Shown here: positions 37,086-64,000 of the stretch, one piece after another | Layout of the letters: each line of letters opens with the position of its first letter | Position numbering within the stretch: the first letter of the stretch is position 1 | Source of the DNA: Desulfosudaceae bacterium | GTDB taxonomy: Bacteria; Desulfobacterota; Desulfobacteria; Desulfobacterales; Desulfosudaceae | Length of the DNA stretch: 64,000 bases | Reading direction: 5' to 3' | Assembly: GCA_963674745.2 (NCBI GenBank) | Contig: CAXXDV010000001.1 | Span: 2,496,001-2,560,000 of the forward strand | The notes under the pieces: generated by a model | Told to the model about the DNA's origin: nothing | Seen by the model: the letters and a program-made list of their open reading frames with translations, nothing else | Database searches by the model: none | Translations under genes and position numbers: made by a program

Positions 37086-37114
37086 TTGACATTGAAATAA
37101 TATTATGATACATT
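37086..37114 (+). promoter_or_regulatory. Putative sigma70 promoter for the PKS cluster
   Basis: TTGACA-N17-TACATT with an extended -10 TG at 37106-37107, in an AT-rich region. Confidence 0.6.
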
Positions 37115-37270
37115 CAAAAGGTTTAGATACAATAGCGGGTGTATTTCCGATGCTGTGTTTTGGTTTTTGATAATACCGTTTTTCAATGAATTTTTTTATA
37201 AAAAGGAATGCGGGGAACATTTTAGTTCCTGTGGCCTTGATAACAGATCCCCACGTTTTTATATCGATAG

Positions 37271-40200
37271 GTGAACAAGATGAGTCCATCCGGCAATAAA
37301 CATCAGCCTGAACCATGTGATATCGCAATCATAGGGATGGGATGCCTGTTTCCCAGGGCGGCTGATTTGAGGGCTTATTGGGAAAATATCCTCAATAAAA
37401 TTAACGCAATAGTCGAGGTCCCGGAGGACCGTTGGGATTGGCGGCAATACTACAGTGCGGATCGGCACGAAAAAGATAAAGTTTATTCAAAGTGGGGGGC
37501 TTTTATCGATGACCTTCCTTTTGACCCTTTAAACCACGGCATACCGCCGAATTCCCTCAACTCAATAGAGCCGCTTCAATTGCTCTCACTGGAAGTGGTT
37601 AAAAGTGCCCTGGAAGATGCCGGCTATAAACACCGGGAATTTCCCCGGGACAGAACTTCCGTTATTTTTGGTATCAGCGGCTCTGGAGAACATGGTCAAA
37701 AATACTGTTTTCGCTCATCATTGCCGATGTTTTTCGGGAGTGCTGCCGGGGACATCGCATCCTTTCATAAGGAAAATCTGCCGCAATGGACGGAGGATTC
37801 TTTTCCGGGTATTCTGACCAACGTCACTGCCGGAAGAATCGCCAACCGGTTTGATCTTGGCGGCGTTAACTGTACGATTGATGCCGCATGCGCCTCGTCC
37901 CTGTCCGCACTATACTTGAGCGTCAGGGAACTCGAAGCAGGGACAAGTGATATCGTTATTGCCGGAGGCGCGGATTGCACGCAAAATCCGTTTGCTTATC
38001 TGTGTTTTTCAAGAACGCAGGCCCTTTCGCCGAGAGGCATATCCGCGCCTTTTGATGACAACGCCGATGGAATCGTTTTGGGCGAGGGGCTGGCGGCAAT
38101 CATTCTAAAACGTTTATCCGATGCCGAGCGGGATGGCGATAAAATTTATGCCGTCATCAAAGGCGTCGGCGCCTCGAGTGACGGCCGGGGCAAGAGCCTG
38201 ACGGCGCCGCGTCGCGAAGGGCAGATCCAGGCCTTGAAGCGGGCCTATGAACAGGCCGGCATATCGCCTAAAACGGTCGGTCTTATAGATGCGCACGCAA
38301 CCGGAACCGCTGTCGGTGACCGGGTTGAAATTGAATCAATGAGCGAAGTGTTTTTGGGAGAAGGTGCGGCAGCCCAAACCTGTGCGATCGGGTCTGTAAA
38401 ATCAATGATCGGCCACACGAAATCAACAGCCGGGCTGGCTGGTTTGATCAAGGTCGCCCTGTCGCTTCATCATAAGACGTTGCCGGCAACACTGAATGTG
38501 ACGATGCCGAATAAAGGTTTGACAATACCCGGCAGCCCCTTTTACGTGAACACGGAAACAAAACCATGGCTCAACCATACGGCAGACTATCCTCGTAGAG
38601 CCGGTGTGAGCGCGTTCGGATTCGGCGGTACAAATTATCATATTGTGCTGGAAGAATACACCCGTGACAATTCGCAAAAATCGAAACAAAAAGCGTTTTC
38701 GCAATGGCCTTGTGAGCTGTTTATATGGAAAAACGCCTCTTCCCAAAGACTGCTTGAGGTCTTGGTTCCACTGGAAGGTGCCCTGGCGCAGGGCGCAACG
38801 CCCTCGCTCAAAGACCTGGCCTATACCGTTAATAAAGCCGGAGAAGCGTCCGGATCCGGGAATGACGGCCAAAGCATAAACCTCGCCGTTGTGGCCTGCT
38901 CGGTAAATGACTTAAAGGACAAACTGAATACCGTTATCAAAGCATTACAGGATTCACGGCTGGAGATTGTTGATACCAAGGGGATTTACATGTCTGAAAC
39001 GTCTGCTCTCGGTGACGGGAAGCTGGCGTTCCTTTTTCCCGGGCAGGGATCCCAATATCTGAATATGTTCTGGGATCTGGTGGTTCAGTTCCCGGACATG
39101 CAGGCTTGGTTTGAACGGGCTGAAAGGGTTGTTGCCAATAAACTGGACAGGCCGTTAAGCAGTTATGTTTTTCCCACGAAAGCGCTGAGCAAGGAGGAAC
39201 GGGGTGTTTGTGAAAAAGACCTCGCCCGGCCGCAAATCGTCCAGCCGGCTTTGGGGACAGCCAATGTTGCCATGTATCATCTATTGAAAAGCCTTGGCAT
39301 TACGCCTGATATGGCGGCCGGCCACAGTTATGGCGAATACGTTGCACTGGGTGCCGCGGGTGTTTTCAGCGCGGATGACTTAATCGGGGTAGCCGAAGCC
39401 AGGGGTCGTTTTATCACTGAAACGGCAGGCGCCGACCTCGGTACAATGGCCGCGGCCGGGGAAGACAAGACGGTTGTCGAAGATATTATTAAAGATATTG
39501 ACGGCGTGTGGATAGCGAACATCAATTCACCGAAACAGACGGTGATTTCCGGAAGGAGCACTGCTGTCGACGAGGCCATGGAGAGATTGAAAAGCAAGGG
39601 TGTCGCCACCCGGCGTTTTCCGATCGGGTCGGCCTTTCATTCCCCGGTTGTTGCTCCGGCCAATGAGCTGCTCAAGGACTATCTTTCCAGGGTGAAGATG
39701 AATAGGCCGGCCATTGCAGTTTATTCAAACACGACCGCACAGCGCTACCCGGAGGACACTGATGCCATACGCGCGCTTCTGGTCAATCATCTTGTGAGCA
39801 AAGTGGACTTCGTGAATGAAATCGAGACCATGTATAACGACGGGGCCCGTATTTTTATTGAGGTGGGACCGGGCCGGGTGCTGTCAGGCCTTGTTTCTAA
39901 AATATTAAAAGACCGACCGCATCTGGCGCTGATTTCCAATCAGGCCGGCAAGTCGGGTTTAAGCCAGCTTTTACATTTGCTGGGGCGATTAATTGTCAGC
40001 GGCATTAATGTGAACATGGAAAAAGTGTATGAAGGCCGGGCGTTGAAGATGATCGATCTTGATGCACTGTACAGGCAGAAAGATCAATTCGGGATGACGC
40101 CGACAACCTGGCTTGTGAACGGGGCAAGGTCAATCTCTTTTAAAGAGGCAATGGCAATCAGTCCCAAAAAGGTCGTTAAGCCCATGGATTTAAAACCGGA

Positions 40201-42844
40201 AAGCGCAGCCATCAGGCAGGATGGGGCTGTCAATGACGCATCCGGTTTCGCCGCCCCGGACTTTAAGCCCGCAGATGTTTTGCCCTCCAACAGCAAAGCA
40301 TATGTAATGATACAGCACCAGAAATTGATGCAACGATTGCTTGATATGCATCAGAGCGTAATGATGCGCTATATGAACGGATTGACTCCCGGCAGTAAAG
40401 TGCCGATATCGGATAGCGCCATCACCGTCGGAGGCCATGCGCTAAATGCAAATGATGTGATCACGCCAGCGCCGGACCGTGTGCGCAGCGGGACTTCTCG
40501 GGTCGCTGAAGATGCCTCTGGCGGTTCTTTGATAGAACCCGTTTCAGGCGGCCCAGCCGGTGCCCCTGGAGAGACGGAGACAAAAGCCGTCCTTCTGCAA
40601 ATCGTCAGTGAGCGAACCGGTTACCCCGAGGATATGCTTGATCTCGATCTGAACCTTGAGGCTGACCTGGGCATTGATTCCATCAAGCGGGTCGAGATAT
40701 TGAACAGCCTGACACAGGTCCTGTTCCCGGAGGGGCATGATGAATCTTTTGAAGAGATCGAAGAGATCACCCAGTCTAAAACGCTGCGTGAAATAATTAC
40801 GCACATTGAAAACTTTATAAGCGCGGCCGGGAATCCCGCCTTGAACAAACCCGTTTCAGGCGGCCCAGCCGGTGCCCCTGGAGAGACGGAGACAAAAGCC
40901 GTCCTTCTGCAAATCGTGAGTGAGCGAACCGGTTACCCCGAGGATATGCTTGATCTCGATCTGAACCTTGAGGCTGACCTGGGCATTGATTCCATCAAGC
41001 GGGTCGAGATATTGAACAGCCTGACACAGGCCCTGTTCCCGGAGGGGCATGATGAATCATTCGAAGAGATCGAAGAGATCACCCAGTCTAAAACGCTGCG
41101 TGAAATAATTACGCACATTGAAAACGTGCTAAACGCGACCGGAAGCATCGGCTCAGGCGATGCGGTAAAACAGCCGCAGGAAATAACCCGCGGCAGTGCC
41201 CCTGAAGACACTGAAAACCGGTCGCTTCCCCGATTCACGTTAACGGCGGTTGAGGCGCCGATTGAGGAAAGCGCGATTGATCTGTCCCGGGACCGGGTGA
41301 TTATTATCACGGATGATGAGCGGGGCGTTGCCCGGTCACTTCAAGATAAATTGACGGCAAAGGGATATAAAGCCGTGACGTTGCGGTGGGGAAAAGAACA
41401 GGGGCATACCAAAGAGCCGGTTTATTTTCTGAATAATAATTTTGCCGAAGAAATAGAAACCGTTGTTAAAACAGTCCAAAAACAGCACGGCAACGTCGGC
41501 GGCCTTATTCACCTTTTTCCCCTTAAGGAATGCCCGTCTTTTCCGGGCATTGATCTGTCGGGCTGGACGGCACGTATCGATTACGAGATAAAATCGCTTT
41601 TCAGCCTTTTAAAATGCCTGGCCCCGGACTTGAGTGATGCGGCTGACAATGGCGGTGCCTGTGTTATGTCGGCCGTCCGTATGGGCGGTACCTTTGCCAG
41701 TGGATTGAGCACCAATAATACGGAATTTTTTCCGGGGCATGGCGGGATCAGTGGTTTGCTGAAAACCGCAGCCATCGAGTTGCCCGGGGTCCGGGTCAAG
41801 TCGGTTGATCTGGACAATAAAGCATCCGTATCGGAAATAGCAGAAAACCTATTCAAAGAAATCGGTGTGGCTGACAACTTTATAGAAATAGGCTATTCCG
41901 GAAAGAAAAGAATGAGACTGGGCCTTCTGGGTTCTTCTCTGGAATCAAGACGGGAGAACGGCCTTCAGATTGATTCGTCATGGGTGATTCTGGTTACCGG
42001 CGGCGCGCGTGGCATAACCGCTCAGATCGTTCTGGAACTGGCCCGAAAGTATCAGCCCAAACTTATTCTGGCCGGCCGCTCTTTGCCACCGCCGGTTGAA
42101 GAACCCGCCCAAACCGCGGGCGTTGAGCAACCCGAGGCGTTAAAAAAGACGATCATTGATAATATGCGGCAGCAGGGCAAGGACTTCTCCCTTGTTGATG
42201 TCGAAAAGGCATACAGGCGGTTGCGCAAAGAACGGGAGATGCGTTCAAACATCTCAGCCATGCGAAGCGCCGGGGCCGAGGTCGAGTACTGTCAGGTCGA
42301 TGTGCGCCACGAAAAAGAATTCGGCGACCTCATTGAAGGGGTATATGAAAAACACGGAAAGATTGATGCGGTCATTCATGGGGCAGGCGTGATCGAAGAT
42401 AAATTGATCAAGGATAAAACACTGGTTTCTTTTGACAGGGTATTGGGCACAAAGACGGAAAGTGCATTCATCCTCAGCAAGAAATTAAGACCTGAATCAC
42501 TGAAGTTGCTTGTTCTGTTTTCATCCGTTGCCGGACGATTCGGAAATCAGGGACAGTGTGATTATGCCGCGGCCAATGAAGTCATTAATAAACTGGCCGT
42601 GTATCTTAACAAGAAGTGGCCCGGAAGGGTCGTTTCAATCAACTGGGGACCGTGGGATAAATCAGGCATGGTCTCTGACGGGCTCAGGGAAGAGTTCGCC
42701 AGAAGAGGCGTCAGGCTGATACCGCCTGCCGCAGGGTCACATTTTATGAATATCGAAATCAAAAAGGGTGAAAAGGGCGAGGTGGAACTGGTTGTCGGCG
42801 ATGGGCCGTGGGGAGCGGTTGAAGATACGTCGCAGGTCCAGTAG
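37271..42844 (+). CDS. Iterative type I PKS (PfaA/HglE-like): KS-AT-ACP-ACP-KR
   Basis: KS: IDAACASS, DAHATGT, GHTKS. AT: GHSYGE, AFHS. Two ACPs: LGIDSIKRVEI. KR: VTGGARGI, DYAAAN. Confidence 0.93.
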   Translation: MNKMSPSGNKHQPEPCDIAIIGMGCLFPRAADLRAYWENILNKINAIVEVPEDRWDWRQYYSADRHEKDKVYSKWGAFIDDLPFDPLNHGIPPNSLNSIEPLQLLSLEVVKSALEDAGYKHREFPRDRTSVIFGISGSGEHGQKYCFRSSLPMFFGSAAGDIASFHKENLPQWTEDSFPGILTNVTAGRIANRFDLGGVNCTIDAACASSLSALYLSVRELEAGTSDIVIAGGADCTQNPFAYLCFSRTQALSPRGISAPFDDNADGIVLGEGLAAIILKRLSDAERDGDKIYAVIKGVGASSDGRGKSLTAPRREGQIQALKRAYEQAGISPKTVGLIDAHATGTAVGDRVEIESMSEVFLGEGAAAQTCAIGSVKSMIGHTKSTAGLAGLIKVALSLHHKTLPATLNVTMPNKGLTIPGSPFYVNTETKPWLNHTADYPRRAGVSAFGFGGTNYHIVLEEYTRDNSQKSKQKAFSQWPCELFIWKNASSQRLLEVLVPLEGALAQGATPSLKDLAYTVNKAGEASGSGNDGQSINLAVVACSVNDLKDKLNTVIKALQDSRLEIVDTKGIYMSETSALGDGKLAFLFPGQGSQYLNMFWDLVVQFPDMQAWFERAERVVANKLDRPLSSYVFPTKALSKEERGVCEKDLARPQIVQPALGTANVAMYHLLKSLGITPDMAAGHSYGEYVALGAAGVFSADDLIGVAEARGRFITETAGADLGTMAAAGEDKTVVEDIIKDIDGVWIANINSPKQTVISGRSTAVDEAMERLKSKGVATRRFPIGSAFHSPVVAPANELLKDYLSRVKMNRPAIAVYSNTTAQRYPEDTDAIRALLVNHLVSKVDFVNEIETMYNDGARIFIEVGPGRVLSGLVSKILKDRPHLALISNQAGKSGLSQLLHLLGRLIVSGINVNMEKVYEGRALKMIDLDALYRQKDQFGMTPTTWLVNGARSISFKEAMAISPKKVVKPMDLKPESAAIRQDGAVNDASGFAAPDFKPADVLPSNSKAYVMIQHQKLMQRLLDMHQSVMMRYMNGLTPGSKVPISDSAITVGGHALNANDVITPAPDRVRSGTSRVAEDASGGSLIEPVSGGPAGAPGETETKAVLLQIVSERTGYPEDMLDLDLNLEADLGIDSIKRVEILNSLTQVLFPEGHDESFEEIEEITQSKTLREIITHIENFISAAGNPALNKPVSGGPAGAPGETETKAVLLQIVSERTGYPEDMLDLDLNLEADLGIDSIKRVEILNSLTQALFPEGHDESFEEIEEITQSKTLREIITHIENVLNATGSIGSGDAVKQPQEITRGSAPEDTENRSLPRFTLTAVEAPIEESAIDLSRDRVIIITDDERGVARSLQDKLTAKGYKAVTLRWGKEQGHTKEPVYFLNNNFAEEIETVVKTVQKQHGNVGGLIHLFPLKECPSFPGIDLSGWTARIDYEIKSLFSLLKCLAPDLSDAADNGGACVMSAVRMGGTFASGLSTNNTEFFPGHGGISGLLKTAAIELPGVRVKSVDLDNKASVSEIAENLFKEIGVADNFIEIGYSGKKRMRLGLLGSSLESRRENGLQIDSSWVILVTGGARGITAQIVLELARKYQPKLILAGRSLPPPVEEPAQTAGVEQPEALKKTIIDNMRQQGKDFSLVDVEKAYRRLRKEREMRSNISAMRSAGAEVEYCQVDVRHEKEFGDLIEGVYEKHGKIDAVIHGAGVIEDKLIKDKTLVSFDRVLGTKTESAFILSKKLRPESLKLLVLFSSVAGRFGNQGQCDYAAANEVINKLAVYLNKKWPGRVVSINWGPWDKSGMVSDGLREEFARRGVRLIPPAAGSHFMNIEIKKGEKGEVELVVGDGPWGAVEDTSQVQ
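40536..41125 (+). repeat. Near-identical direct repeat (2 x 278 bp, period 312 bp) encoding tandem ACP domains
   Basis: 40536-40813 versus 40848-41125; four substitutions found by eye. Confidence 0.92.
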
Positions 42845-42881
42845 TTGCTTTATGTCATCATAAGCGTGATAGCAGAGTCTA

Positions 42882-45800
42882 ATGACGGATAACAATAAAA
42901 ACAATACCTCAGCATCAGAAGATATCGCCATTATCGGCATGTCCTGTATTTTTCCGGGTGCTTCAGGGATCGATGAATACTGGCAGAATATTTTATCCTG
43001 TGTCGACTGTATCAGCGACGCCCCTCCTGAAGCGTGGGACCAGGGCGTGCTTTATGACCCCGAAAGTGATGCCAAAGACAGGGTTTATTGTAAACGGGGC
43101 GGGTTCCTTCATGAGAAGGAAAGAATGTTTAATCCGTTGAAGTACGGTATCATGCCCAGCGGTGTAGAAGGCGCGGAGCCGGACCAGTTTCTGGGATTGC
43201 GAGTTGCCCACGAGGCCCTGTCCGACGCAGGGTATCTTGACAACCCTGAAATAAAAGACCGCACCGCGGTCATTCTGGGCAGAGGTTCGTACGTCAATGC
43301 CGGACAGATGAATCTGGTCCAACATGGATGGATTGTTGAACAGACCCTTCAGATATTAAAACGCCTTCATCCCGAGTACGCGGATGACCAGCTGAAAGAA
43401 ATCAAAAATGAGCTCGTATCCGGCCTGCCGCCTTTAATCGCGGAAATCGTACCCGGTCAGGTCCCGAATATTGCGGCCGGTCGTATCGCCAACCGTCTGG
43501 ATTTAAAAGGGCCGAGCTTTACGGTGGATGCCGCGTGCGCGTCTTCACTGATCGCTCTTGATATGGGGCTCAAATCATTGCGCAGCCGTGAATGCGACCT
43601 GGCCATTGTGGGTGGTATGCAGGGCGGCAATACGGTGCTTTCTTATTTAATGTTCTGTCTGATAAAAGCCTTGTCCAGGAGTTCCCGGATCCGGCCGTTT
43701 GATCAAAACGCGGATGGCACGATATTGGGGGAAGGCGTTGGTATGGTGGTTTTGAAACGGTTGGCGGAGGCCGGTAAGGATGGTGACCGCATTTATTCGA
43801 TTGTCAAGGGGATGGGGACAGCCAGCGACGGTCGCGGGATGGGCATATTGGCGCCACGGCTGGAAGGTTCGGCCCTGGCCGTAGAGCGCGCCTATCAGAC
43901 AACCGGCCTTTCCCCTGCCACAATCGGCCTGATGGAAGCCCATGGAACAGCCACAATCGCGGGAGACACAACAGAATTCAGTGCGTTGCATTCGGTCTTC
44001 GGAAACAGGAAGGGGAAATTGCCCCGGTGCGCCATCGGATCGGTCAAGTCGATGATCGGCCATTCGCTGGGCGCGGCCGGTATCGCCGGATTGATCAAGG
44101 CCTCCCTTGCCCTTTATCATAAAGTGCTGCCGCCCACCTTGAACTGTACCGAGCCGAACAGCAAGCTGGGGCTTGACCGGTCCGGTTTTTATATTAATAC
44201 CGAAACCAGGCCCTGGATCCACGGATCTGCGGAAACCCCGAGGCGTGCCGGCGTCAACTGCATGGGGTTCGGCGGCATCAATGCCCACGCGGTGCTTGAG
44301 GAGTATACGGAAAAGAGTGCGGCTCAAACGTCCAGTTGCCATAAACGCTGGGACAGTGAAGTTTTTATTTTTCAGGGAGATTCGCGCCAGACGCTGATCA
44401 GCCGGGCCCGTCAGGTGCTTGATTTCATTTCCGCCTCGCCGGACGTGGATCCAAAAGACCTTGCCTATACATTGAACAGTACGCTTTCGAAAAAGACCTG
44501 CCGTCTTGCCATTGTGGCTTCCGCGATTACGGATTTGGAAAAAAAGCTGGCCAACGCGCTTGAACGTCTGGCCGATCCCGAATGTAAACGCATCATGTCC
44601 CGGGGGGGTGTTTATTTTTTTGCCGAACCATTGAAAAATAATGGTAAACTGGCTTTTCTGTTTCCGGGTGAGGGGTCGCAATACGTTAACATGCTTTCCG
44701 ATCTGTGTATCCATTTTCCTGAAGTAAGAAAACGCTTTGATCGCATTGACGGGATATTCAGCGGGCATTCAAGAGATTTTGTCCCCAGTGATTTTATCTT
44801 TCCGCGTCCGGTATTCAGCGAGACGGATAAAAAGGCCGCCGAAGAAAATTTATTCAAGATGGATGTGGCCGTTGAGGCGGTTTTAACGGCCAACGATGCA
44901 TTGCTTGATATCCTGAACAATCTGGATATCCGTCCGGACGCGGTTCTCGGCCACAGTACGGGGGAATACTCTTCCATGCGGGCCGCCGGAATCCTGAACA
45001 TTACCGACAGTGCGGACAGCGATCAGTACCTCCTTGCCCTGAACAAAAGCTATGAAGAGATAGCCGCAAAGGGCGAAATCCCCCGTGCCGTCCTGGTTGC
45101 CGTGGCCGCGGATTCAGAAAAAGTGGCGTCAATAATTGAGGCAACGGGTGGCCGGTTGTTTATTGCCATGGACAACTGTACCCTTCAGACCGTTATCGCG
45201 GGCGCCCCGGAATATATGGAAGTTGCCGTCAAGGCGTTGAAACGGCAAAGTTTGATGTATCAGACCTTATCTTTTGACAGACCTTATCATACGCCGTTGT
45301 TCAAGGAGTTTGCCGAAGGTCTTTCCCGTTTTTACGACCAGTGGCCTGTCGTCCCCCCCTCGACGCCGATTTATTCCTGTACCACCGGCGACCTGTTCCC
45401 CGATGATGTCACGGCTATTCGCAGGATTGCCGTTGACCACTGGCTCATGCCGGTACGGTTCAGGCAGACAATTGAAAAAATGCACGCCGATAATGTGCGG
45501 CTTTTTGTTGAAGTGGGGCCAAGGGGCAACCTGACGGCATTTGTAAAAGACATTCTCGGCCGCCGGGATCATTTATCGATTGCCCTCAACACGACGCGGC
45601 GTTCCGGGATTACCCAGCTTAATCATGTAGTGGGAATGCTGGTCGCCCACGGTGTGGACGCACGGCTGGATTATCTTTACAGTCGCAGGGATCCCCGAAA
45701 ACTGACATTCGACGGCACCGAAAACGGCCGCACCAAAAGCAATGAATCTAAAGGCATCATGACGTTGTCGCTCCAGTTCCCGCGGATGAAGTTGCGGAAT

Positions 45801-48188: not shown

Positions 48189-48189
48189 T

Positions 48190-55078: not shown

Positions 55079-57418
55079 ATGTATAGCAAAACGGTAAGGA
55101 ATAATGCATGCTCCGGGCTTGACCGCTGGAGTTTCCGAAAGGTGGGGCCGAACGGTCTGGGCGACCCTTATAACTGTTATCCGCATTCAATGGCCTGGTT
55201 CCAGGATCACCTTTATGTCGGCACCACCCGTGCCAACCTTGCCAGCAGGGCCAAGCAGATTCAGAGCAATACCCCTGAAAAAATGAGCAAGGTATGGCCT
55301 GTAAAAATACCCGAAAAGGCCCTGGACAGCCCGCTACGAGCCGAAATATGGCGTTATAATCCGGCTGCCGACGAGTGGCGTAACCTGTACACCGCCCCGA
55401 TGGTGATAGGCATTGACGGTTTTGAAGTGCCCATAAGCGTGGGGTTCAGATGTATGGCGGTGTTCCAGGGGCCCCGTGATTCGTCACCGGCGCTTTACGC
55501 GCCCACCTGGGCCAGTCATCAGACCCCGGCAACAATAATGCTGAAAACGACTGACGGCGTTCATTTTGAAGCGGTATCAGAGCCCGGGCTTGGAATAACC
55601 CAGAACACCCCGAGGTCGTTGCGCGGTATTGTCAGTTTTAAGGGTTACCTCTTCACCTCTCCAGTGGTCGGACAGAAAAGACTGGAACCCAATATCGCCG
55701 GAGAGGCGGTTGTCTATTGCAGCGCTGATCCGGATCATGGCGCCTGGCAGTTTGCCTGTGAAACCAGTTTCGGGGACCCGAATAACGTCAGTGTTTTTCA
55801 CATGGCCGCCTCCGACGAGTATTTTTATGCCGGAACACTTAATATTTACGAGGGATTTCAGATATGGAAAACCGATGCGGAAGGGGGGCCGCCGTTTAAA
55901 TGGAAAAAAGTCGTTTCCAATGGCGCCTATCGGGGAAAATTAAACCAGATGGGGATGACACTGGTCTATTTTAAAGGCTGTATTTTTGTGGGCAGTGCCA
56001 TACAGAATTGCAGCTGGGATCATGACTATAAAGTGGGGCCGGCAGCTCCCGAAGTCATCCGTATCAACCCGGATGACTCCTGGGATCTGATTATGGGAGA
56101 GCCGCGCATGACGCCTGAAGGCCTCAAGGTGCCTTTAAGCGGTCTGGGCCCTGGATTCAGCGATCCTTTTGCGGGTTATATCTGGTCCATGTGTGTGCAT
56201 GAAGGCTGGCTGTACGTCGGCAACGCTGTCTGGGCAAATTTTCTGCGCTATTCTGACCGGCTGGACAAACTGCCCAAGATTCTGCGTAACATACAGCACC
56301 CGGAGAATCTTGAAAAACTTCTTCAAGATTTTGGCGGTTGTGATCTGTGGCGGACCCGTGATGGCGTTAACTGGCGGCCGGTAACCATTAATGGCTTCGG
56401 TAATTGCTTTAACATCGGGTTCCGGAATATGGTTTCATCCCCTTATGGCCTTTTTGTCGGCGCAGCCAATCCGTTTGCGCCCGAGGTGGCTGTGAAGCGG
56501 ATTGCGGGCTGGAAGTATGAAGAAAACCCTGTGGGCGGACTTGAGATATGGTTCGGCTCCCATGAACATGGAAACCCGCCCGGGCGCGCGGAGAATGAAC
56601 TTGTACCCGGAAAGATAGATGACGGCCAATACGTTGTTCTTAAAGAAAATGAAAGCGACGAAGACGCGTTTGAAAGGCATATCAATACCTTTTACGGCAA
56701 CAGCAATTTCCGTCATTTCGGCATGTGGAAGATCGGCATAAATGATGCCAGGGTCGCATGCGAAAACCTGATGGGTGAGATACTGGCCTTTATTCCAGAC
56801 GAGGATGGGCGTGTCCTTGATGTCAGCTGTAACATGGGCGCTTCAACGCGTCGTTTGTCGAAAAGCTTTCCGCCTCAAGCGGTAACAGGAATCACTTCAG
56901 ATGAAGAACTGCTGGCGGTGTGTAAAAGAACGGCTCCTGAAGCAAGATTCCTTTGCGGGAAGATTTCGCGGCTGAACCTTGATGACGCTTTTTTTGATTC
57001 GGCCGTTATGATTAAAGGCTTCTACAAACTCGGGGCGAGAGCCAGGCTATTTTCGGAAATTCATCGCGTGCTGCGGCCGGGTGGACGATTTGTGGGTTTT
57101 GACGTGCTTTATGACCCCCCAAACGCAAATACCGGCTGGCGCAAACTTGATAGACGGAAGCGCCATGTTGAAAATATAGATGAATATCGGCACCTTTTGC
57201 ATGAGGCCGGGTTTGATGATATTATGTTCATCGACGTGACGGAGGCCTGTCTCAATGGTTTCCGGATGCACATGGAAAGATATTTTGCATTGAAACATAT
57301 CGGTGGTGATCTCAATGACGATATGCTGCAAAAAATAAAAGATTTTTTTAAGCCCGATAAACCTGCGGTCAGCGGGTGCTTTTTCGTATTATGCCGCAAG
57401 CCGGAAACGGGGTCGTGA
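55079..57418 (+). CDS. Fusion of a putative beta-propeller domain and a C-terminal class I methyltransferase-like domain
   Basis: Repeated G(F/L)GDPxN...M.....LY(V/A)G blades. The C-terminal part has HFGMW, LDVSCNMG and RVLRPGG. Confidence 0.7.
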   Translation: MYSKTVRNNACSGLDRWSFRKVGPNGLGDPYNCYPHSMAWFQDHLYVGTTRANLASRAKQIQSNTPEKMSKVWPVKIPEKALDSPLRAEIWRYNPAADEWRNLYTAPMVIGIDGFEVPISVGFRCMAVFQGPRDSSPALYAPTWASHQTPATIMLKTTDGVHFEAVSEPGLGITQNTPRSLRGIVSFKGYLFTSPVVGQKRLEPNIAGEAVVYCSADPDHGAWQFACETSFGDPNNVSVFHMAASDEYFYAGTLNIYEGFQIWKTDAEGGPPFKWKKVVSNGAYRGKLNQMGMTLVYFKGCIFVGSAIQNCSWDHDYKVGPAAPEVIRINPDDSWDLIMGEPRMTPEGLKVPLSGLGPGFSDPFAGYIWSMCVHEGWLYVGNAVWANFLRYSDRLDKLPKILRNIQHPENLEKLLQDFGGCDLWRTRDGVNWRPVTINGFGNCFNIGFRNMVSSPYGLFVGAANPFAPEVAVKRIAGWKYEENPVGGLEIWFGSHEHGNPPGRAENELVPGKIDDGQYVVLKENESDEDAFERHINTFYGNSNFRHFGMWKIGINDARVACENLMGEILAFIPDEDGRVLDVSCNMGASTRRLSKSFPPQAVTGITSDEELLAVCKRTAPEARFLCGKISRLNLDDAFFDSAVMIKGFYKLGARARLFSEIHRVLRPGGRFVGFDVLYDPPNANTGWRKLDRRKRHVENIDEYRHLLHEAGFDDIMFIDVTEACLNGFRMHMERYFALKHIGGDLNDDMLQKIKDFFKPDKPAVSGCFFVLCRKPETGS

Positions 57419-57517
57419 GCCTGTCGCGTAAAAATATGGCCATTCCGGCGGGCGTGATTTAATATGTGATGAATAATCGATGCATCCATGGACTGATTAT
57501 TCAAGAACTGAACAGGG

Positions 57518-59452
57518 ATGAAAAAGATGAAAAATATTTTACTGGTAAACCCGAAGTATCGACTGGAAATTCGATGGATTTCCAGCAAGAAGGAAATTGA
57601 TGTAAAAGCGGATTATTTTCCGTTGGGTTTGGGCACTGTCGCGGCACTGACGCCTGAAGGCTGTCATGTGGACATATGGGATGAACTCGTCCGCGGGGAG
57701 GTCGAAAAAGCTGACCTTGACAAAAAGTACGATCTGGTCGGTGTCACCAGTCACAGCGCCAACCTCGGGCGGGCCAATGAAATAGGCGCCTATTTTAAAC
57801 AAAAGGGGATTCTTACGGCGATTGGCGGTCCCGGCGTTACATCAAACTCGCACCGATGCCGCAAGGGGTTTGATATCCTTTTTATAGGGGAAGCCGAACT
57901 GACCTGGCCCAGATTTGTAAGAGAGTGGCAGAGCGGCAGCTATAAACCCGAATACCGTCAGATTGACAAACCGGATATTTTGTCAAGTCCCGCGCCTGAC
58001 TGGCGAAGCATCGAATCTGATGTGGATAAATATGCCATGGGAACCGTCCAGACAACCAGGGGGTGCCCTATCGATTGCGAGTTCTGTGACGTCATCTATC
58101 TGCATGGCCGCCGGCAGCGCTATAAATCCATTGACCAGATATTGAAAGAAGTCCGGGCACTCGAGCAGCTGGGGGTAGAAAGCATCTCTTTTAACGATGA
58201 TAATTTTACGATCGCGCACAAAAGGGCTAAAGATGTATTGCGGGCATTAATCACCTTGAACAACTCTTTTTCAAAACCGTTGCGGTTCATGACCCAGTTG
58301 GGCATTGACATCAGCCGGGATGAAGAAATGCTGGAGCTGCTGGCAGACGTCAATATGTATGAAGTGCTGATAGGCATTGAATCCCCGAATAAAGATTCTT
58401 TAAGAGAGGCCGGTAAATTTAACAATTTGAAAGGAGACCTGGTCGCCGAAGTGCGCAAGGTGCTTTCCTATGGCATTGCCGTGCGGGGCGCCATGATTAT
58501 CGGCTTTGATCATGATGACCAGGATATCTTTGAGCAGCAGTATCAATTTATCCAGGAGACCTGCCTGCCTTCTATCTCCATGCACATGCTTAATGCGCCG
58601 GTGGGCACCAGGCTGTGGCGCAGACTCCATGCGGAAGGGCGGGTGATAGACGCTTTTGCCATAGCGGACAAATCCACCCAGCGGCTGTTTAACAACATTA
58701 TCCCAAAGCGCATGAGCAGAGTGGAGCTGATGGAGGGATTTGCGGATTTGTACGAAAAGCTTTTTAGCTGGGAAAGTTTTAAGGAACGCATGTTCGGATT
58801 CGTTTCGCTGGTAAACCGCCCGCCCAAAATCCTGAGGGAAGAAGAGTCATTGCAGGAGCTGCTGGCCCTTGGGCCGGACATGAACCTTGACAAGGAATCC
58901 TGTGGCGCCCTGGCTGAAATTTTCGAGTTCACTGATAAAACGGCGCCATTCTTGCTGGGGCGGGTCAGGGAACTGGCCATCCAGTTTGTCCGGTACCGTC
59001 ACTCCGCGTATGACTTTATTCCGGGCTTGAGGCAGCAGATAGAGCTGGAATCTTCGGGTAAACTGCAGATCAAACTCGACGACAGGCCGATTCCGATACC
59101 GGATGGTTTCAGGCAGGAATTTGATGCCATATTTCCGTCTGTACAGCAGCGGGCGGTCCGGAATCTGATTGATAAAAGTAAGGTTCCCGAAGTGCTGGTC
59201 GATGTTTTTGTGGACTTTCTTATCCATGAAGAGGGCTTCAGTAAACTGGAGGATTATCATATCACTTACCTGAACGAAATCGTCGACAGTGCCTGTACCA
59301 GGGTGAACGGACAGGCGCCGGCAGGCGCCGTACCGGCGGAGACCGCGGATAACGGGGGCGGGGATGAAAACAGTAAGCGCCTGAAGGATGATGTTCTGAT
59401 CGGCGTGGAGCACGAACTTATGAAAATGCAGCTCGCGCAGCAGGCGGTTTGA
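57518..59452 (+). CDS. B12-binding-domain radical SAM protein
   Basis: N-terminal PLGLGTVAALTP...GGP...GEAE; RGCPIDCEFC (CxxxCxxC); motifs DDNF, GIES and IIGFDHD. Confidence 0.9.
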   Translation: MKKMKNILLVNPKYRLEIRWISSKKEIDVKADYFPLGLGTVAALTPEGCHVDIWDELVRGEVEKADLDKKYDLVGVTSHSANLGRANEIGAYFKQKGILTAIGGPGVTSNSHRCRKGFDILFIGEAELTWPRFVREWQSGSYKPEYRQIDKPDILSSPAPDWRSIESDVDKYAMGTVQTTRGCPIDCEFCDVIYLHGRRQRYKSIDQILKEVRALEQLGVESISFNDDNFTIAHKRAKDVLRALITLNNSFSKPLRFMTQLGIDISRDEEMLELLADVNMYEVLIGIESPNKDSLREAGKFNNLKGDLVAEVRKVLSYGIAVRGAMIIGFDHDDQDIFEQQYQFIQETCLPSISMHMLNAPVGTRLWRRLHAEGRVIDAFAIADKSTQRLFNNIIPKRMSRVELMEGFADLYEKLFSWESFKERMFGFVSLVNRPPKILREEESLQELLALGPDMNLDKESCGALAEIFEFTDKTAPFLLGRVRELAIQFVRYRHSAYDFIPGLRQQIELESSGKLQIKLDDRPIPIPDGFRQEFDAIFPSVQQRAVRNLIDKSKVPEVLVDVFVDFLIHEEGFSKLEDYHITYLNEIVDSACTRVNGQAPAGAVPAETADNGGGDENSKRLKDDVLIGVEHELMKMQLAQQAV

Positions 59453-59515
59453 GACGTCGAATAGGCATCCGCTGAAAAAGGGCGAAAGACAAAAATGATT
59501 TCTTGAGAGAATAAA

Positions 59516-60931
59516 ATGGAAGATTTTGTCCCTCAGCTTGAAGGACTGGGCCTTAGCCCGCAGTCACAATTGTTGGTGGCCTATACGCATTTTATGAACG
59601 GGGATGGGGCTCAGGCGATCCAGCGATGTAAAAACGCCCTGAAGATGAACCCTAAATACACCGACGCCCACCTGCTGCTGGCCAAGGTATACGCCGGTCT
59701 TGGAAACAGCGACGAGGCGATGGCGGCGTGCAGGGATGCCCTGGCCGTCGATCCGGATCTGGCCAAAGGTTTCCTGATGCTGGGATCAATTTATCAGGAC
59801 CAGGGTTCGTATCCTGAAGGGATCGCCGCCTGCCGGAAATCGCTGAAAATCGATCCGGATGATCCGACAGGTCATTTTCTGCTTGGCGAGATGTATGCCC
59901 TGCAGGAACAGTTTGAGGATGCCGTGCGTGCCTTCCAAAAGGCCCTGAAATTAAATCCGCAGCTTGAGCTGGCGTATTATAAACTTGCCGCCGCATACCA
60001 GGCGCAGGGGATGACTGCTGAAGCCCTGCAAGAGGTGAGAAAAGCGTTAGAGCTGAATCCCATTGTGGCCCGCACGAGAATCCTTTTAGGTGACATTTAT
60101 TTTGCCCAAAAAGAGTACGAAAAGGCCCTTTCCGAATATCAGGAGGCCCTTACAAACAATCCGCAACTGGCCGAAGCACATCAAAAAGCAGGTGAAGCCT
60201 ATTTCAAGCTGGAGAAGACCCACCAGGCTATTTTGGAGTATCGGATTTCATTGCTCATTAACGCAAAATCGGTTGAGGCCCATGTCGGGCTTGCCCATAT
60301 TTATTTTACGACCGGCCGGTATGGCGTGGCGGTTTCCGAATATAAGGCGGCCTTGCATTTGAATCCACATTTATTGTCGGCTCGTGCCGGGCTTGCCGAT
60401 GCCCATGTCATGAATGAACAGTATGCGGAGGCGGTCGATCAATATCGCGCCGCCCTTGAACTGGCAGAGGTTAAATGTGAATCCGGCGATCAATGCCTGG
60501 AAAATGAGCAATATAATGAGGCGATTGCTTTATACCGGTCAACACTGGGCCTGGATGAGGCGCTGCATCCCGTTCATGACAAAATCAAGACAAGCAGTTC
60601 ATGGCATCCTCTGGTAAGCAGGAGGAAGCATGAACGGATCCCGATGAGAGTCCCTGCGGAGATCCGGACGAAGGATGGTGTTCCTTACAGTGTCGAGAGC
60701 GTTGATGTTTCTAAGCAGGGTATTTTAATTGAAAGCAGCAAGCCCATACAGGTCGGTTCTGAAGTAGAGGTTTTGCTTTTGCCTGAAGGCGAAAAAGATG
60801 CGATCCCCCTTGTCGGCCGGGTTGTCAGGGTCGCAAACCCGGATCGTCCTGACAAGCAGTTCGGGATTGAGCTGGCACCCGATGCCGATGATGCGTGGGG
60901 TGCTATTTTAGGTGAGGACTGTATCATGTAA
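59516..60931 (+). CDS. TPR-repeat protein with C-terminal PilZ domain
   Basis: About nine 34-aa TPR-like repeats, then RKHER (RxxxR) and DVSKQG. Confidence 0.88.
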   Translation: MEDFVPQLEGLGLSPQSQLLVAYTHFMNGDGAQAIQRCKNALKMNPKYTDAHLLLAKVYAGLGNSDEAMAACRDALAVDPDLAKGFLMLGSIYQDQGSYPEGIAACRKSLKIDPDDPTGHFLLGEMYALQEQFEDAVRAFQKALKLNPQLELAYYKLAAAYQAQGMTAEALQEVRKALELNPIVARTRILLGDIYFAQKEYEKALSEYQEALTNNPQLAEAHQKAGEAYFKLEKTHQAILEYRISLLINAKSVEAHVGLAHIYFTTGRYGVAVSEYKAALHLNPHLLSARAGLADAHVMNEQYAEAVDQYRAALELAEVKCESGDQCLENEQYNEAIALYRSTLGLDEALHPVHDKIKTSSSWHPLVSRRKHERIPMRVPAEIRTKDGVPYSVESVDVSKQGILIESSKPIQVGSEVEVLLLPEGEKDAIPLVGRVVRVANPDRPDKQFGIELAPDADDAWGAILGEDCIM

Positions 60932-61018
60932 GGCCGCAAAGAAAAAACCAGTGCCGCCCAGGCGGCGGGCTGCATTGCGCTGCATTCGTCAGAATCTGCG
61001 CGTCTTGGTGTCGAACTT

Positions 61019-63364
61019 TTGGCTTTGCCGTCGAAAATACAATTTTCTGAAGTAAAGACGGGTTACGGATTGCAAAAAATACTTCCAAAATATTGTGCAG
61101 ATGTGGAAATTGTGCCGAGATTGGGCAAAGAGGGCGTATTCCGTTATCTTGTCGTTGCCCCGGCTTCTGATGAAGTATATGAGATTGGCGAAAAAGAATA
61201 CTTTATCTTCAAGCAGTTCAATGGAGAAACAGCGCTTGAAACGATACCGGAACGGTTTTTTAACCACTTTAATATCCCATTGAATAAGGATTATCTGGAA
61301 TCTTTTGTTATTCATTTAACATCATTGGGATTGCTGGAATCAGATGCGTCCACAATTGAAGAACATGCCGCTCAAGATGATGACATTAACGGCATTAAGA
61401 TATTTGATCCTGACCGGTTGTTGACCTTTTTGTCGCAGATTTGCTGGTGGTGCTTTACACCTTTTTTTCTGATGTTCACCGGTATTACTTTATTTGTGGC
61501 AATGGGCGTTTTATTTAAATACGGCGGTGACTTGATTTTTGAGGTTCAAATTCTCTGGGAACCGGGTTTTTTCTTCTTTTTCCCTTTATTGGGTATTTTT
61601 GTTATCCAGGTGGCATGTGAGATGGTAAAAGGTATGACCTGTAAATATTACGGGGGGCATGTCCATGAATTCGGCGTATGGTTTGTTTTTAAAATAATTC
61701 CCTTTTTCTATTGCGACCTGACCGATGCCCTGTGGATGGAAAATCAATCCAACCGCAAAAAGATTCTGTCCGCCGGGATTGTTTTCCACTTGTTGCTCTG
61801 GTCCATGGGTATCATCGGCTGGTATGACACACACACCGGATCAAAAATAAACTTGTTTTTTATAATCTTTATCTGTGTTTCTACACTTTATTTGTTTTAT
61901 TCCGTTAATCCGTTTTTTCAACGGGACGGTTATACGCTTTTGAGTGTTTGGCTTAAAACGCCGGATTTGAGAAGCCGGGCGATCAATTTCTGGAAGCACT
62001 GGTTTTTTAAAAAACCGCTGCCTGAACCACTGACAAAAAAACAAGTGCGCAGGTTTAAAGTTTATGGGTTGTCATTGTTTGGATTTCATTTTGTCTTCTG
62101 GTCGGCGCTGTTGGGGTTCATTGGATACCTTCTTGTAGACCTTTTAAATGGAATCGGCGCGATCTTATTTTCAATAATCCTGTTTTTCAGGTTTAACAAT
62201 TATTTGAAGAGGATACCCATGGAATTATTCAATTTTAAAAGGGTTTTATTAAATGAGAACGGCATGGCCAGCCTGCCGGTCAGACGGTTTATTAAATTTG
62301 GCATACCAATACTCATTATTCTGGTTATGCTGATACCCTACCCGTTTTCTGTCGGCGGCGATTTCCGTATCGTGCCTGAAAATCAGCTGGGCATTCGTGC
62401 GCAGGTGGCCGGGGAAATCGGGGAAGTCTTTGTCACGGAAGGGGAATTTGTAGAAGAGGGGCAACCTGTTGCCGTTATGGTCGGACGGGAGCAACGGAAA
62501 ACAGTCGATGAAGTCCAGGCCTCTCTGGACGAGGTGCATGCCAGGCTGGAACTTCTCCGGCAAGGCGCCAAAACCGAAGAGATCCAGCGGGCTGAACAGG
62601 AAGTGGCGACCGCGGCAAAAAGTTTAGAGTACAGCAGCCTTCAAGCCGATAGAAGTGAAGGTATGTTTAAAAACAAGGCGATTTCAGAGCAGGATTATGA
62701 GAACGCTTTAAAGCAGCGTGATCTGGATAAAGAAAAGCTTGAACTGGCCAAAAAGAACCTCGAGCTTGTTAAAAGCGGTGCCCGTGATGAAGCGATCAAG
62801 GCCCTTGAAGCAGAAGAAAGACGCCTGCAAGTCCTTTTTGAGAACGCAAATGAAGATTTGAAGCAAACAACAATGCTCAGTCCTGCTGACGGCAGAATCA
62901 TCACCCCTTTTGTCTCCCAGACCGTGGGGCAATACCTGCAGGTTGGTGACCTGCTCGCTGTGGTTGAACAACCGGGTAATATTATAGCCGAAATACAGTT
63001 GTCCGAAGAAGATGTTGGAGAAGTTGATGTGGGCGCAGAGACCAGGTTAAAGACCTGGGCTTTTCCTCATAATGTGTATTCAGGAAAAGTGCTGGCCATT
63101 GCACCGGTCGCGTTTGAAAAAAGTAAGGGCCGAATCGATCGTGCATTATCTGAAAGAGAATGGCGTGTTGAACAAAAAGAACTGATTCGAAAAAAGGGAA
63201 AGGTTGTAAGGATTATTTCAAGTATGGAAGATCCCGATGGCCTCTTAAAAACAGATATGACCGGATACGGCAAAATCAGATGTGGCTGGCGGCCGGTGGG
63301 GATTGCTTTTACGCGATGGCTGAACCGGTTTATCTTTGTAGAGGTATGGTCATGGCTGCCATAA
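61019..63364 (+). CDS. Fusion: PqqD-like N-terminus, degenerate M50/site-2-protease-like membrane domain, HlyD-family adaptor
   Basis: N-terminal YEIGEKEYFIFKQFNG...LTSLGLL; multi-TM region with GGHVHEFG and NPFFQRDGY; lipoyl-like halves (GEIGEVFVTEGEFVEEGQ; SPADGRI) flanking a coiled coil. The TTG start is uncertain. Confidence 0.8.
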   Translation: MALPSKIQFSEVKTGYGLQKILPKYCADVEIVPRLGKEGVFRYLVVAPASDEVYEIGEKEYFIFKQFNGETALETIPERFFNHFNIPLNKDYLESFVIHLTSLGLLESDASTIEEHAAQDDDINGIKIFDPDRLLTFLSQICWWCFTPFFLMFTGITLFVAMGVLFKYGGDLIFEVQILWEPGFFFFFPLLGIFVIQVACEMVKGMTCKYYGGHVHEFGVWFVFKIIPFFYCDLTDALWMENQSNRKKILSAGIVFHLLLWSMGIIGWYDTHTGSKINLFFIIFICVSTLYLFYSVNPFFQRDGYTLLSVWLKTPDLRSRAINFWKHWFFKKPLPEPLTKKQVRRFKVYGLSLFGFHFVFWSALLGFIGYLLVDLLNGIGAILFSIILFFRFNNYLKRIPMELFNFKRVLLNENGMASLPVRRFIKFGIPILIILVMLIPYPFSVGGDFRIVPENQLGIRAQVAGEIGEVFVTEGEFVEEGQPVAVMVGREQRKTVDEVQASLDEVHARLELLRQGAKTEEIQRAEQEVATAAKSLEYSSLQADRSEGMFKNKAISEQDYENALKQRDLDKEKLELAKKNLELVKSGARDEAIKALEAEERRLQVLFENANEDLKQTTMLSPADGRIITPFVSQTVGQYLQVGDLLAVVEQPGNIIAEIQLSEEDVGEVDVGAETRLKTWAFPHNVYSGKVLAIAPVAFEKSKGRIDRALSEREWRVEQKELIRKKGKVVRIISSMEDPDGLLKTDMTGYGKIRCGWRPVGIAFTRWLNRFIFVEVWSWLP

Positions 63365-63373
63365 GGAGGTCTG

Positions 63374-64000
63374 ATGAGAATCGCAAAAACAAATAAAAGA
63401 TATCGCATCATCAGTTTGGTCCAGGCAATTTTAGTGCTCATTATGTTGCCGTCTTTTGCCTTTTCCGGACCGTCTCCGCAACTTGTTACGCTGGACGATG
63501 CCTTTGCTCGTGCCATAACCATTGATGAGCGGATCAAAATAGCCGAAAGAGAAATTACGAAAAGCCATATTCTTTCTGACAAAGCGGCAACTTATTTCTG
63601 GCCGAGCATGTCTGCATATGGCGGGTATTTCGAGGCGAATGAAGAGGTCAGAATCGGATCTTATACCGCAACCTCGGCCACCGGCCTTGGACCTTTTGAT
63701 GTCGCTCCGGTTGACAGAAATGTGATCACGCCCAAGGGCGAATGGCGGGGAAAATTCGAGTTTTTGCAGCCGCTTTACAGAGGGGTGTACTTCCCATTAA
63801 AAGACCAGGCAGAGAGAATTATCGAAAGAAGCACGGAAACGTTCTATCAGACTGTGCAGGATACGCTGCTCGAGGTCGAGCGGGTTTACTTCGAAATTTT
63901 AAAAATCAAGGAACTGGTGCTAAACGCCGAAGAGATTTGCAAACTGGCTCAAGAGGAGCTGGACATTGCAAAAGTTAAATTCGAGGCCGGCCAGGCGACG
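63374..64000 (+). CDS. TolC-family outer-membrane protein, 5' part (runs off the window; absent from the ORF track)
   Basis: AAGGAGG RBS. The frame MRIAKT...signal peptide...VTLDDAFARA...FLQPLYRG...VERVYFEILK...KFEAGQAT stays open to base 64000. Confidence 0.85.
   Translation, partial: MRIAKTNKRYRIISLVQAILVLIMLPSFAFSGPSPQLVTLDDAFARAITIDERIKIAEREITKSHILSDKAATYFWPSMSAYGGYFEANEEVRIGSYTATSATGLGPFDVAPVDRNVITPKGEWRGKFEFLQPLYRGVYFPLKDQAERIIERSTETFYQTVQDTLLEVERVYFEILKIKELVLNAEEICKLAQEELDIAKVKFEAGQAT

Follow-up and report, generated by a model that had tools for sequence, protein, structure and literature searches.

Enediyne synthases (PKSE) carry ketosynthase (KS), acyltransferase (AT), acyl carrier protein (ACP), ketoreductase (KR), dehydratase (DH) and phosphopantetheinyl transferase (PPTase) domains, arranged KS-AT-ACP-KR-DH-PPTase, on one polypeptide and are accompanied by a separate hot-dog thioesterase. 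In the CurM-type mechanism, the beta-hydroxyl of an ACP-bound chain is sulfated, the thioester is hydrolysed and decarboxylation with loss of sulfate yields a terminal alkene. Alg44 and BcsA belong to PilZ-gated alginate and cellulose secretion complexes, and PilZ receptors for cyclic di-GMP (c-di-GMP) are marked by two motifs, RxxxR and [D/N]xSxxG, roughly 25 residues apart. Here we analyse a 64,000-nucleotide (nt) stretch of the genome of a Desulfosudaceae bacterium (positions 2496001-2560000 of contig C1, hereafter the window; the genome, G000, amounts to 5.55 Mb in three contigs), in which a run of co-oriented genes begins with two large polyketide synthases (PKSs) and continues slightly beyond the window end. 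We think it somewhat more probable than otherwise that these genes form one 14-gene operon that makes, modifies (probably by sulfation) and exports a polyketide lipid, with c-di-GMP control in one subtype. Our confidence is greater for the existence of one functional biosynthesis-export unit than for this overall picture, and smaller for sulfation of the final product and for gating by c-di-GMP.

The synthase itself is a member of the established Pfa-like 'secondary lipid' class. A catalogue of such synthases published in 2011 (Shulse & Allen, Types A-T; PMC3098273) contains a 'Type S' from Desulfobacterium autotrophicum HRM2 that has a single representative and no product, and which its authors speculate could be a core fatty-acid synthase. 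The word 'undescribed', used for the whole system by the initial annotation of this DNA, is therefore too strong for the synthase class, and the present cluster may or may not be the same as Type S of HRM2. Full-text literature searches surfaced only this catalogue and found no characterised cluster of this type; PMC9902471 and PMC13291983 gave nothing relevant under the terms searched. What is new is the set of conserved partners, namely an NPP-type phosphodiesterase, a discrete carrier protein, a hydrolase and a beta-propeller protein, which together with the two PKSs constitute a six-gene core that recurs across five phyla or more and on hundreds of soil and sediment contigs from metagenomes.

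From 37271 to the window end, the open reading frame (ORF) list gives 13 co-oriented genes on the + strand, and scans with Pfam and NCBIfam reproduced all of the domain calls made initially, with the B12 type of the radical S-adenosylmethionine (SAM) enzyme as the one caveat. The prediction that the cluster continues past the window was also borne out, if only just: in the downstream sequence, the rest of the TolC gene and a sulfotransferase gene lie within 1.4 kb. The TolC gene (L001 374-1780 in the downstream sequence) stops 780 nt beyond the window and, after 45 nt, a gene for a sulfotransferase of 202 amino acids (aa) follows as the last of the operon (window+826 to +1434, L001 1826-2434, + strand), bringing the total to 14 genes and ~28.2 kb; a convergent NAD-epimerase gene 3' of the sulfotransferase closes the operon. 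The intergenic gaps measure -4 to 127 nt and contain no terminator-like sites, weak patterns of this kind being found only inside genes. A near-consensus promoter had been proposed ahead of the cluster, and the pattern is indeed present at 37086..37114 on the + strand (TTGACA-17-TACATT with an upstream TG, 10/12 matches, 157 nt 5' of PKS1). It is not proof of a promoter, however, because the AT-rich spacer 5' of PKS1 is rich in such sites (seven, vs 2.0 +/- 1.4 in shuffles). The same spacer is shared by a 90-aa ORF divergent from the operon (36706-36978, - strand) with no Pfam match, and a promoter-like site is present on the minus strand at 37012-36985 (TAGTCA-16-TATAAT with TG).

PKS1 (37271..42844, + strand; 1857 aa; KS-AT-ACP-ACP-KR), for which the ATG at 37280 behind AGGTGA is a likelier start than 37271, is PfaA-like: it passes the NCBI PfaA subfamily model TIGR02813 with 1238 bits against a cut-off of 1010, which agrees with the earlier placement of the synthase in the Pfa-like iterative class. 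PKS2 (42882..48188, + strand; 1768 aa; KS-AT-ACP-DH-PPTase by Pfam and motifs) falls below the cut-off of that model at 733 bits. Between them, the two proteins contain two KS, two AT and three carrier domains, one KR, one DH and one built-in PPTase, with catalytic residues intact in every one of these domains. PKS1 displays an active-site Cys, GHSYG, two LGIDSIKRVE carrier motifs and YAAAN; PKS2 displays the KS residue Cys216, HGTAT, GHSTG, one LGIDSIKRLE and the PPTase motifs. The LGIDSIKR[VL]E shared by the three carrier domains is the carrier motif of polyunsaturated fatty acid synthases. GHSxG is found in both AT domains, and the active-site Cys and His residues are kept in both KS domains, so that PKS2 has a true KS and not a chain-length factor. 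In the DH of PKS2, His1232 and Asp1414 (LDAAGQ) are retained in at least 90% of 22 relatives. Since the sole KR resides on PKS1 and the sole DH on PKS2, the two proteins must cooperate. Sequence searches of the PDB with both PKSs returned generic modular and trans-AT PKS matches only, without distinguishing between the PfaA, PKSE and Hgl classes.

There is no enoyl reductase (ER) in cis. With the ER domain of a Candidatus Scalindua relative as query, no NMO/PfaD-type match was found anywhere in the window, and the 11 NMO-family matches of the genome are all remote from the operon; unless an ER acts in trans, the chain should therefore stay unsaturated and/or hydroxylated. The genome's FabA-family matches likewise lie outside the operon. 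NMO-type ER genes do adjoin two of the three other Pfa-like loci in this genome, at C3:591347-596400 and C3:1325870-1343132, the second of which encodes a 2393-aa protein with four FabA-type dehydratase matches and represents a canonical pfa-like set.

A discrete ACP of 104 aa (48190..48504, + strand) has only a weak AsbD-like NCBIfam match and keeps its Ser in the context FASID; its paralog, described below, matches PP-binding. The phosphodiesterase gene (g04; 48514..50118, + strand) encodes a member of the alkaline phosphatase superfamily (PF01663, 5.6e-38) whose catalytic set, D10, T49 (PLTPPAW...TG), D274-H275 and H432, does not vary among 11 relatives. The protein is called cytoplasmic and shows no hydrophobic segment at its N-terminus. 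Its structural model is of low confidence (pLDDT 67), with ENPP and Xac NPP as the nearest folds, and confirms an NPP-like fold only; the enzyme might turn over 3'-phosphoadenosine 5'-phosphosulfate (PAPS) or its by-product 3'-phosphoadenosine 5'-phosphate, hydrolyse a phospho- or sulfo-ester of the product, or act on the carrier's prosthetic arm. The alpha/beta hydrolase with a GHSLG motif and a C-terminal PilZ domain (g05; 50131..51342, + strand) is the likely chain-release enzyme. The last core gene (55079..57418, + strand) encodes a 779-aa protein in which a beta-propeller (aa 1-493) precedes a class I SAM methyltransferase (aa 570-720). The N-terminal ~490 aa have no Pfam match and are predicted to form the propeller with a pLDDT of 79 and a pTM of 0.84, the model resembling only generic propellers among known structures (template modelling score 0.42 or below). 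The family is large: a search of 1.84 billion proteins yields 951 cluster representatives at E<=1e-30.

Comparison with other genomes supports the treatment of these genes as one unit. Some PKS match exists in every one of 40 relatives, yet an orthologous PKS2 occurs only in G005, a member of the Desulfobacterales from the same family and another genus (81% and 70% identity over the two halves; next best 43-46%). In G005, all 14 genes are colinear on a 27-kb contig at 68-87% identity. The phosphodiesterase is rare in the host's own order, being found in 6/301 genomes including this one. Anchoring a scan on the propeller, with one genome per species, gave 15 loci: the G005 contig, a Candidatus Scalindua metagenome-assembled genome (MAG), eight cyanobacterial MAGs, one Myxococcota MAG, three MAGs of Acidobacteriota type and a Panacagrimonas MAG. 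PKS2 and/or the phosphodiesterase lie near the propeller in 10/15 of these loci, M50/HlyD in 11/15, the CoA-transferase pair and the esterase in 4/15 each and the radical SAM gene in 2/15; relatives of the TPR protein adjoin the M50/HlyD gene in 8/15. One locus (L024) has an in-frame stop inside the propeller gene.

The Scalindua contig (Planctomycetota) carries almost the whole set. Identities to the operon are 45% for PKS1, 56% for PKS2, 70% for the phosphodiesterase, 52% for the hydrolase, 53% for the esterase, 54% for the propeller-methyltransferase, 34% for M50/HlyD and 49% for a sulfotransferase of the g14 type (g14 being the last gene of our operon), and an ACP is also present. The same contig adds fused CoA-transferases, two radical SAM genes, two further methyltransferases, TPR proteins and a second sulfotransferase. 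PKS1 of this relative bears an ER domain of NMO/PfaD type at its N-terminus, and beyond the cluster stand genes for a condensation-domain protein, an FkbH-like protein and an enolase (these features at L031 2482-4614 and L032 3718-8513). Tailoring and export genes thus accompany the PKSs in other genomes, as the grouping put forward in the initial annotation would have it. The proposed setting of an anaerobic sulfate reducer fared less evenly: a dsrA match above its curated cut-off marks the host as a sulfite/sulfate reducer, but the system is not special to such hosts, its six-gene core occurring in Cyanobacteria, Acidobacteriota, Myxococcota and Planctomycetota.

A scan of metagenome contigs with an alignment of the phosphodiesterase matched at least 601 stretches, 558 of which encode relatives, and the best 80 (46-61% identity) were examined, each count being restricted to loci with sufficient flank. 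All 50 loci with at least 1.5 kb of upstream flank have PKS2 on that side of the phosphodiesterase, and PKS1 is there in 22/23 with at least 8 kb, the 10-kb flanks stopping short of the PKS1 start. An ACP adjoins the phosphodiesterase upstream in 41/67 loci (flank of at least 450 nt), under a 70-bit threshold that is harsh for so small a protein. Downstream, the hydrolase is present in 49/56 loci (at least 1 kb) and the propeller in 26/36 with at least 3 kb, rising to 16/19 with at least 8 kb. For that same set of 19 loci, the counts are seven each for the esterase and a short-chain dehydrogenase/reductase, five each for M50/HlyD and any sulfotransferase, three for TPR, two for a CoA-transferase, one for radical SAM and none for TolC. 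From these numbers PKS1, PKS2, ACP, phosphodiesterase, hydrolase and propeller emerge as the conserved core and the rest as variable accessories.

The host also possesses a paralogous core on contig C3 (331000-356000; L014, L015 and L033), with a GC content of 55% vs 50.5% for the genome. Here PKS1' and PKS2' (43-48% identity in KS-AT), an ACP', a phosphodiesterase' (43%) and a hydrolase' without PilZ (34%) are followed by a sulfotransferase' (46.5%) whose gene overlaps that of the hydrolase' by 26 nt. Next comes a protein of 661 aa whose blade repeats weakly resemble the propeller (E 3e-5), and the cluster further encodes a free AT, TolC, an HlyD adaptor, an RND pump of the AcrB type and a TPR protein. 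Clusters of this type are found in G005, G006, G009 and G012 as well. Judging by their gene content, both versions finish with export genes that depend on TolC.

Among possible modifications, sulfation has the best support, whereas the 'head-group transfer' first suggested, without sight of the sulfotransferase gene beyond the window, has no direct support. The operon sulfotransferase displays a PRSGTS loop and an RRD...S element, which we take to be PAPS-binding motifs, and the genome encodes an APS kinase. Two cyanobacterial clusters contain sulfotransferases (two genes in one, one in the other), and in the Myxococcota cluster a sulfotransferase has genes for a sulfatase-like protein, an APS kinase and a patatin as neighbours. 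At E<=1e-10, 2720 longer proteins related to g14 were retrieved, and the best 120 were examined by local BLAST and by their Pfam column. Seventy-four of these contain a phosphodiesterase domain like that of g04 (25-28% identity) and 68 contain TPRs like those of the operon's TPR protein, g11; the Pfam column further shows APS kinase as the fusion partner in six, a methyltransferase in ~13, an aminotransferase in three and a hydrolase-type domain in one. In the operon, phosphodiesterase, TPR protein and sulfotransferase are encoded by separate genes that correspond to the three domains of a common fusion, and this is the strongest evidence for their cooperation. The 850-990-aa proteins that unite a PF01663 phosphodiesterase, TPRs and a small sulfotransferase form a large unnamed family, annotated only as 'alkaline phosphatase family protein'.

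The sulfotransferase could also be read in another way, in which sulfate activates the chain for off-loading as in CurM and the cyanobacterial olefin synthase, the final product then being a terminal-alkene hydrocarbon or polyene and not a sulfated lipid. In favour of it, the operon combines a KR-bearing PKS with a sulfotransferase and an alpha/beta hydrolase, and the overlap of the hydrolase and sulfotransferase genes in the C3 paralog suggests coupling. The two enzymes are, however, free-standing and not C-terminal PKS domains, with their genes 13 kb apart in the operon, and the single hydrolase-type fusion among the best 120 longer sulfotransferase relatives compares poorly with the 74 fusions to a phosphodiesterase. 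No CurM entry appears among the 25 PDB sequence matches of the sulfotransferase at E<=1, which are mostly cytosolic sulfotransferases, and a TolC route with an exported esterase would suit an amphiphile better than a hydrocarbon. We regard this off-loading route as unlikely.

The PHB-depolymerase-type esterase (51470..52504, + strand; GYSNG), with 144 bits on NF050058 against a cut-off of 150, has an N-terminus resembling a signal peptide and is predicted to be exported. Two family III CoA-transferases (Pfam CoA_transf_3; 396 and 404 aa; 52585..54986, + strand) overlap by 4 nt; as they correspond to one fused reading frame in Scalindua, an Acidobacteriota MAG and Panacagrimonas, the separate products here should work as a pair. 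The radical SAM enzyme with DUF4070 (57518..59452, + strand) has the CxxxCxxC motif (CPIDCEFC) at residue 183. Its putative assignment to the B12-binding type comes from NCBIfam matches to the B12-binding families PhpK, HpnJ and HpnR, all below their cut-offs; the Pfam B12-binding model was not reported at E<=0.001.

The export genes comprise an M50-like/HlyD fusion (61019..63364, + strand) and a TolC-family outer-membrane channel (OEP domain; 63374..64000 and on to window+780, + strand). The fusion protein begins with a cytoplasmic N-terminal domain, followed by the M50-like membrane domain (seven transmembrane segments as annotated, six to seven in the scan) and then the periplasmic adaptor (HlyD_3). 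None of the 13 aligned M50-like rows (12 relatives plus this protein, two rows being parts of one Scalindua gene) has the HExxH zinc site, which reads HEFGV in this protein, while a DGY motif is retained in 10/13; the missing site makes the M50-like domain look like a protease-dead scaffold or channel. Among the 14 genes of the operon, Pfam and NCBIfam detect no inner-membrane pump of the ABC, RND or MFS class.

Two proteins of the operon carry PilZ domains, the hydrolase and the cytoplasmic TPR protein with PilZ at its C-terminus (g11; 59516..60931, + strand). In both, RxxxR and [D/N]xSxxG stand at canonical spacing (RLYER291 and NISSQG318 in the hydrolase, RKHER370 and DVSKQG397 in the TPR protein), so that binding of c-di-GMP may be predicted. 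Both fusions occur with intact motifs in this genome, in G005 and on metagenome contigs L094 and L095, and the hydrolase-PilZ alone is found on a 4.5-kb contig (L093). They are absent from Scalindua, the C3 paralog and the other aligned relatives. The annotated c-di-GMP link is thus real at the level of predicted domain architecture and marks one subtype; it does not extend to the system as a whole.

Whether the export genes belong with the synthase bears on a second alternative, in which the PKS and tailoring cluster merely adjoins an unrelated secretion module (TPR-PilZ, M50-like/HlyD and TolC), for a peptide for instance, and c-di-GMP control is unrelated to the polyketide. The M50-like/HlyD fusions do resemble export parts of bacteriocins and other ribosomally synthesised and post-translationally modified peptides, through weak NCBIfam matches to the daptide intramembrane metalloprotease (93 bits for the M50-like domain, cut-off 300) and the NHLP secretion protein. 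The low metagenome counts for M50/HlyD (5/19) and TolC (0/19) near the core point the same way, as does the Panacagrimonas locus, where M50/HlyD, propeller and CoA-transferases lie together without a PKS within 10 kb. Against such a division, M50/HlyD adjoins the propeller gene in the 11/15 genome loci noted above, spanning at least five phyla, gene order is retained in G005 and Scalindua, and the second PilZ domain sits on the hydrolase, a core gene, in the same genomes as TPR-PilZ. The C3 paralog cluster, too, ends in TolC, a membrane fusion protein and an RND pump, and no precursor-peptide-like gene was noticed, no search having been aimed at such genes. Two adjacent systems seem to us about as unlikely as the off-loading route.

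It is very improbable that the PKS pair is the organism's main fatty-acid synthase with incidental neighbours, as PMC3098273 suggests for Type S since fabA/fabZ were not found in strain HRM2, for this genome has a stand-alone FabZ-type gene (110 bits) as well as the three other Pfa-like loci, and no ER stands in cis, while the linked phosphodiesterase and the orthologous PKS2 have the narrow distributions given above.

Several observations weigh against the favoured scheme of one operon for a sulfated, exported polyketide lipid. An ER might work in trans here, and PKS1 relatives in Scalindua, where the ER is an N-terminal domain of NMO/PfaD type, and on metagenome contig L096 include a fused ER, so that a saturated chain is conceivable. 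The CoA-transferases, radical SAM enzyme, TPR protein, M50/HlyD and TolC are accessory, not core. A sulfotransferase lies within 8 kb downstream in only 5/19 metagenome loci, so sulfation may be optional, or the gene may lie beyond the reach of the flanks, and the enzyme could supply an activating group instead of decorating the product. Export through the M50-like domain is a guess, made because no inner-membrane pump of a known class is present. Finally, the propeller has generic matches only and the phosphodiesterase model is of low confidence, so that any role given to either protein is tentative.

With these reservations, gene content, catalytic motifs, co-occurrence and domain fusions lead us to propose the following pathway, whose order of steps we infer. 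The PKS pair would build a long unsaturated and/or hydroxylated acyl chain, as its domain set suggests, on its own carriers, activated by the built-in PPTase. The alpha/beta hydrolase would then release the chain and the CoA-transferase pair would re-activate the resulting acid. Methyl groups may be added by the methyltransferase (O- or C-) and by the putative B12-type radical SAM enzyme, and sulfate from PAPS by the sulfotransferase acting with the phosphodiesterase and TPR protein, a cooperation that their co-occurrence and fusions point to. The amphiphile would leave the cell through M50-like/HlyD and TolC, and the exported esterase would act outside the cytoplasm. In this subtype, c-di-GMP would act on hydrolase-PilZ and TPR-PilZ, to judge from their motifs, and so control release and export. 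The most likely product is a sulfated, methylated polyketide lipid. More tentatively, and at a level of confidence at which we doubt the whole while thinking it worth stating, the six-gene core may represent an unrecognised, phylum-spanning pathway to a new class of secreted sulfated polyketide lipids, anionic amphiphiles serving the envelope, the matrix or surface motility, with c-di-GMP gating release and export in some anaerobes and, as a novel type of conduit, a protease-dead M50 domain taking the place of a pump.

Identification of the molecule would add a class of lipid or polyketide with a potentially wide occurrence in soils, mats and anoxic sediments, and would give functions to three large uncharacterised protein families, including the abundant phosphodiesterase-TPR-sulfotransferase fusions. 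Control by a second messenger of a small-molecule pathway, as opposed to a polysaccharide, could be tested directly in the PilZ subtype, and the M50-like/HlyD fusion may be a new kind of export device.

The surroundings of the operon are largely housekeeping in character on the 5' side, where rpsB, tsf, pyrH, frr, uppS, cdsA, dxr, rseP, purL and purQ form a block, together with a divergent methyltransferase gene. The operon itself is ordinary in base composition (GC 50.4% vs 50.5% for the genome; tetranucleotide distance at the 35th percentile), and an insertion boundary could not be drawn, the flanking genes in the same-genus genome G002 being on different contigs. Elsewhere in the window, a stretch with a GC content of 58-60% against the genome's 50.5% contains a series of three + strand ORFs (7737-12897; 524, 472 and 721 aa), none with a Pfam match at E<=1e-8; 3' of them lie DUF1287, a metallo-beta-lactamase-fold gene and another TolC-family gene (14996-16639). 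Between 2.9 and 6.0 kb beyond the window end (L001 3863-6980), a small SxtJ-like ORF is accompanied by genes for a carbamoyltransferase of 624 aa and a SET-domain protein of 205 aa, an unusual combination without evident connection to the operon.

Set beside the described systems, the operon resembles pfaABCDE in that PKS1 passes the PfaA model, carriers stand in tandem, two large iterative proteins cooperate and a PPTase is linked to the synthase. It differs in that PKS2 is a true KS-AT-ACP protein with a PKS-type (PS-DH) DH, whereas pfa systems have a KS-chain-length factor with FabA-type DH pairs, and in that a PfaD-type ER and PfaB are absent. To our knowledge, the operon's accessory core of ACP, NPP-type phosphodiesterase, hydrolase and propeller does not occur in pfa clusters. 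The enediyne PKSE architecture shares with the operon an equal domain set without ER, a PPTase directly after the C-terminal DH and a separate release hydrolase, and this PKSE-like set makes a polyene-like chain plausible. Here, though, two proteins divide the domain set between them and each has a KS-AT-ACP of its own, the hydrolase is of the alpha/beta and not the hot-dog type, and general Pfam/NCBIfam scans, run without a search by named cassette models, found no enediyne cassette or hot-dog thioesterase families among the 14 proteins. Like the heterocyst glycolipid system (hgl with DevBCA-TolC), in which the product is an envelope lipid, the operon combines a Pfa-like PKS with an HlyD-type adaptor and a TolC-type channel; unlike it, the operon has no glycosyltransferase or ABC domain in its 14 genes and fuses the adaptor to an M50-like membrane domain. 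As far as tested, then, the gene set is distinct from the pfa, hgl and enediyne clusters, as the initial annotation held, with no PfaD-type ER, FabA-type DH, glycosyltransferase or ABC exporter.

CurM and the olefin synthase (Ols) share with the operon a KR-bearing PKS, a PAPS-type sulfotransferase and an alpha/beta hydrolase in one cluster, but the latter two are consecutive C-terminal domains there and free genes ~13 kb apart here, and the commonest fusion partners of the operon's sulfotransferase are phosphodiesterase and TPRs, not a thioesterase. Tripartite efflux systems have the same periplasmic adaptor (HlyD_3) and TolC-type channel (OEP), joined to an ABC, RND or MFS pump that the operon lacks and that the C3 paralog cluster possesses in its RND version. 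From the M50 site-2 proteases, the operon protein is set apart by the absence of the HExxH zinc site. Alginate and cellulose secretion (Alg44, BcsA) provides a parallel of function only, in its PilZ receptor, HlyD-like part, TPR protein and outer-membrane channel; in the operon, the cargo would be a lipid or polyketide, and PilZ is placed on a cytoplasmic TPR protein and a hydrolase rather than on the adaptor or the synthase.

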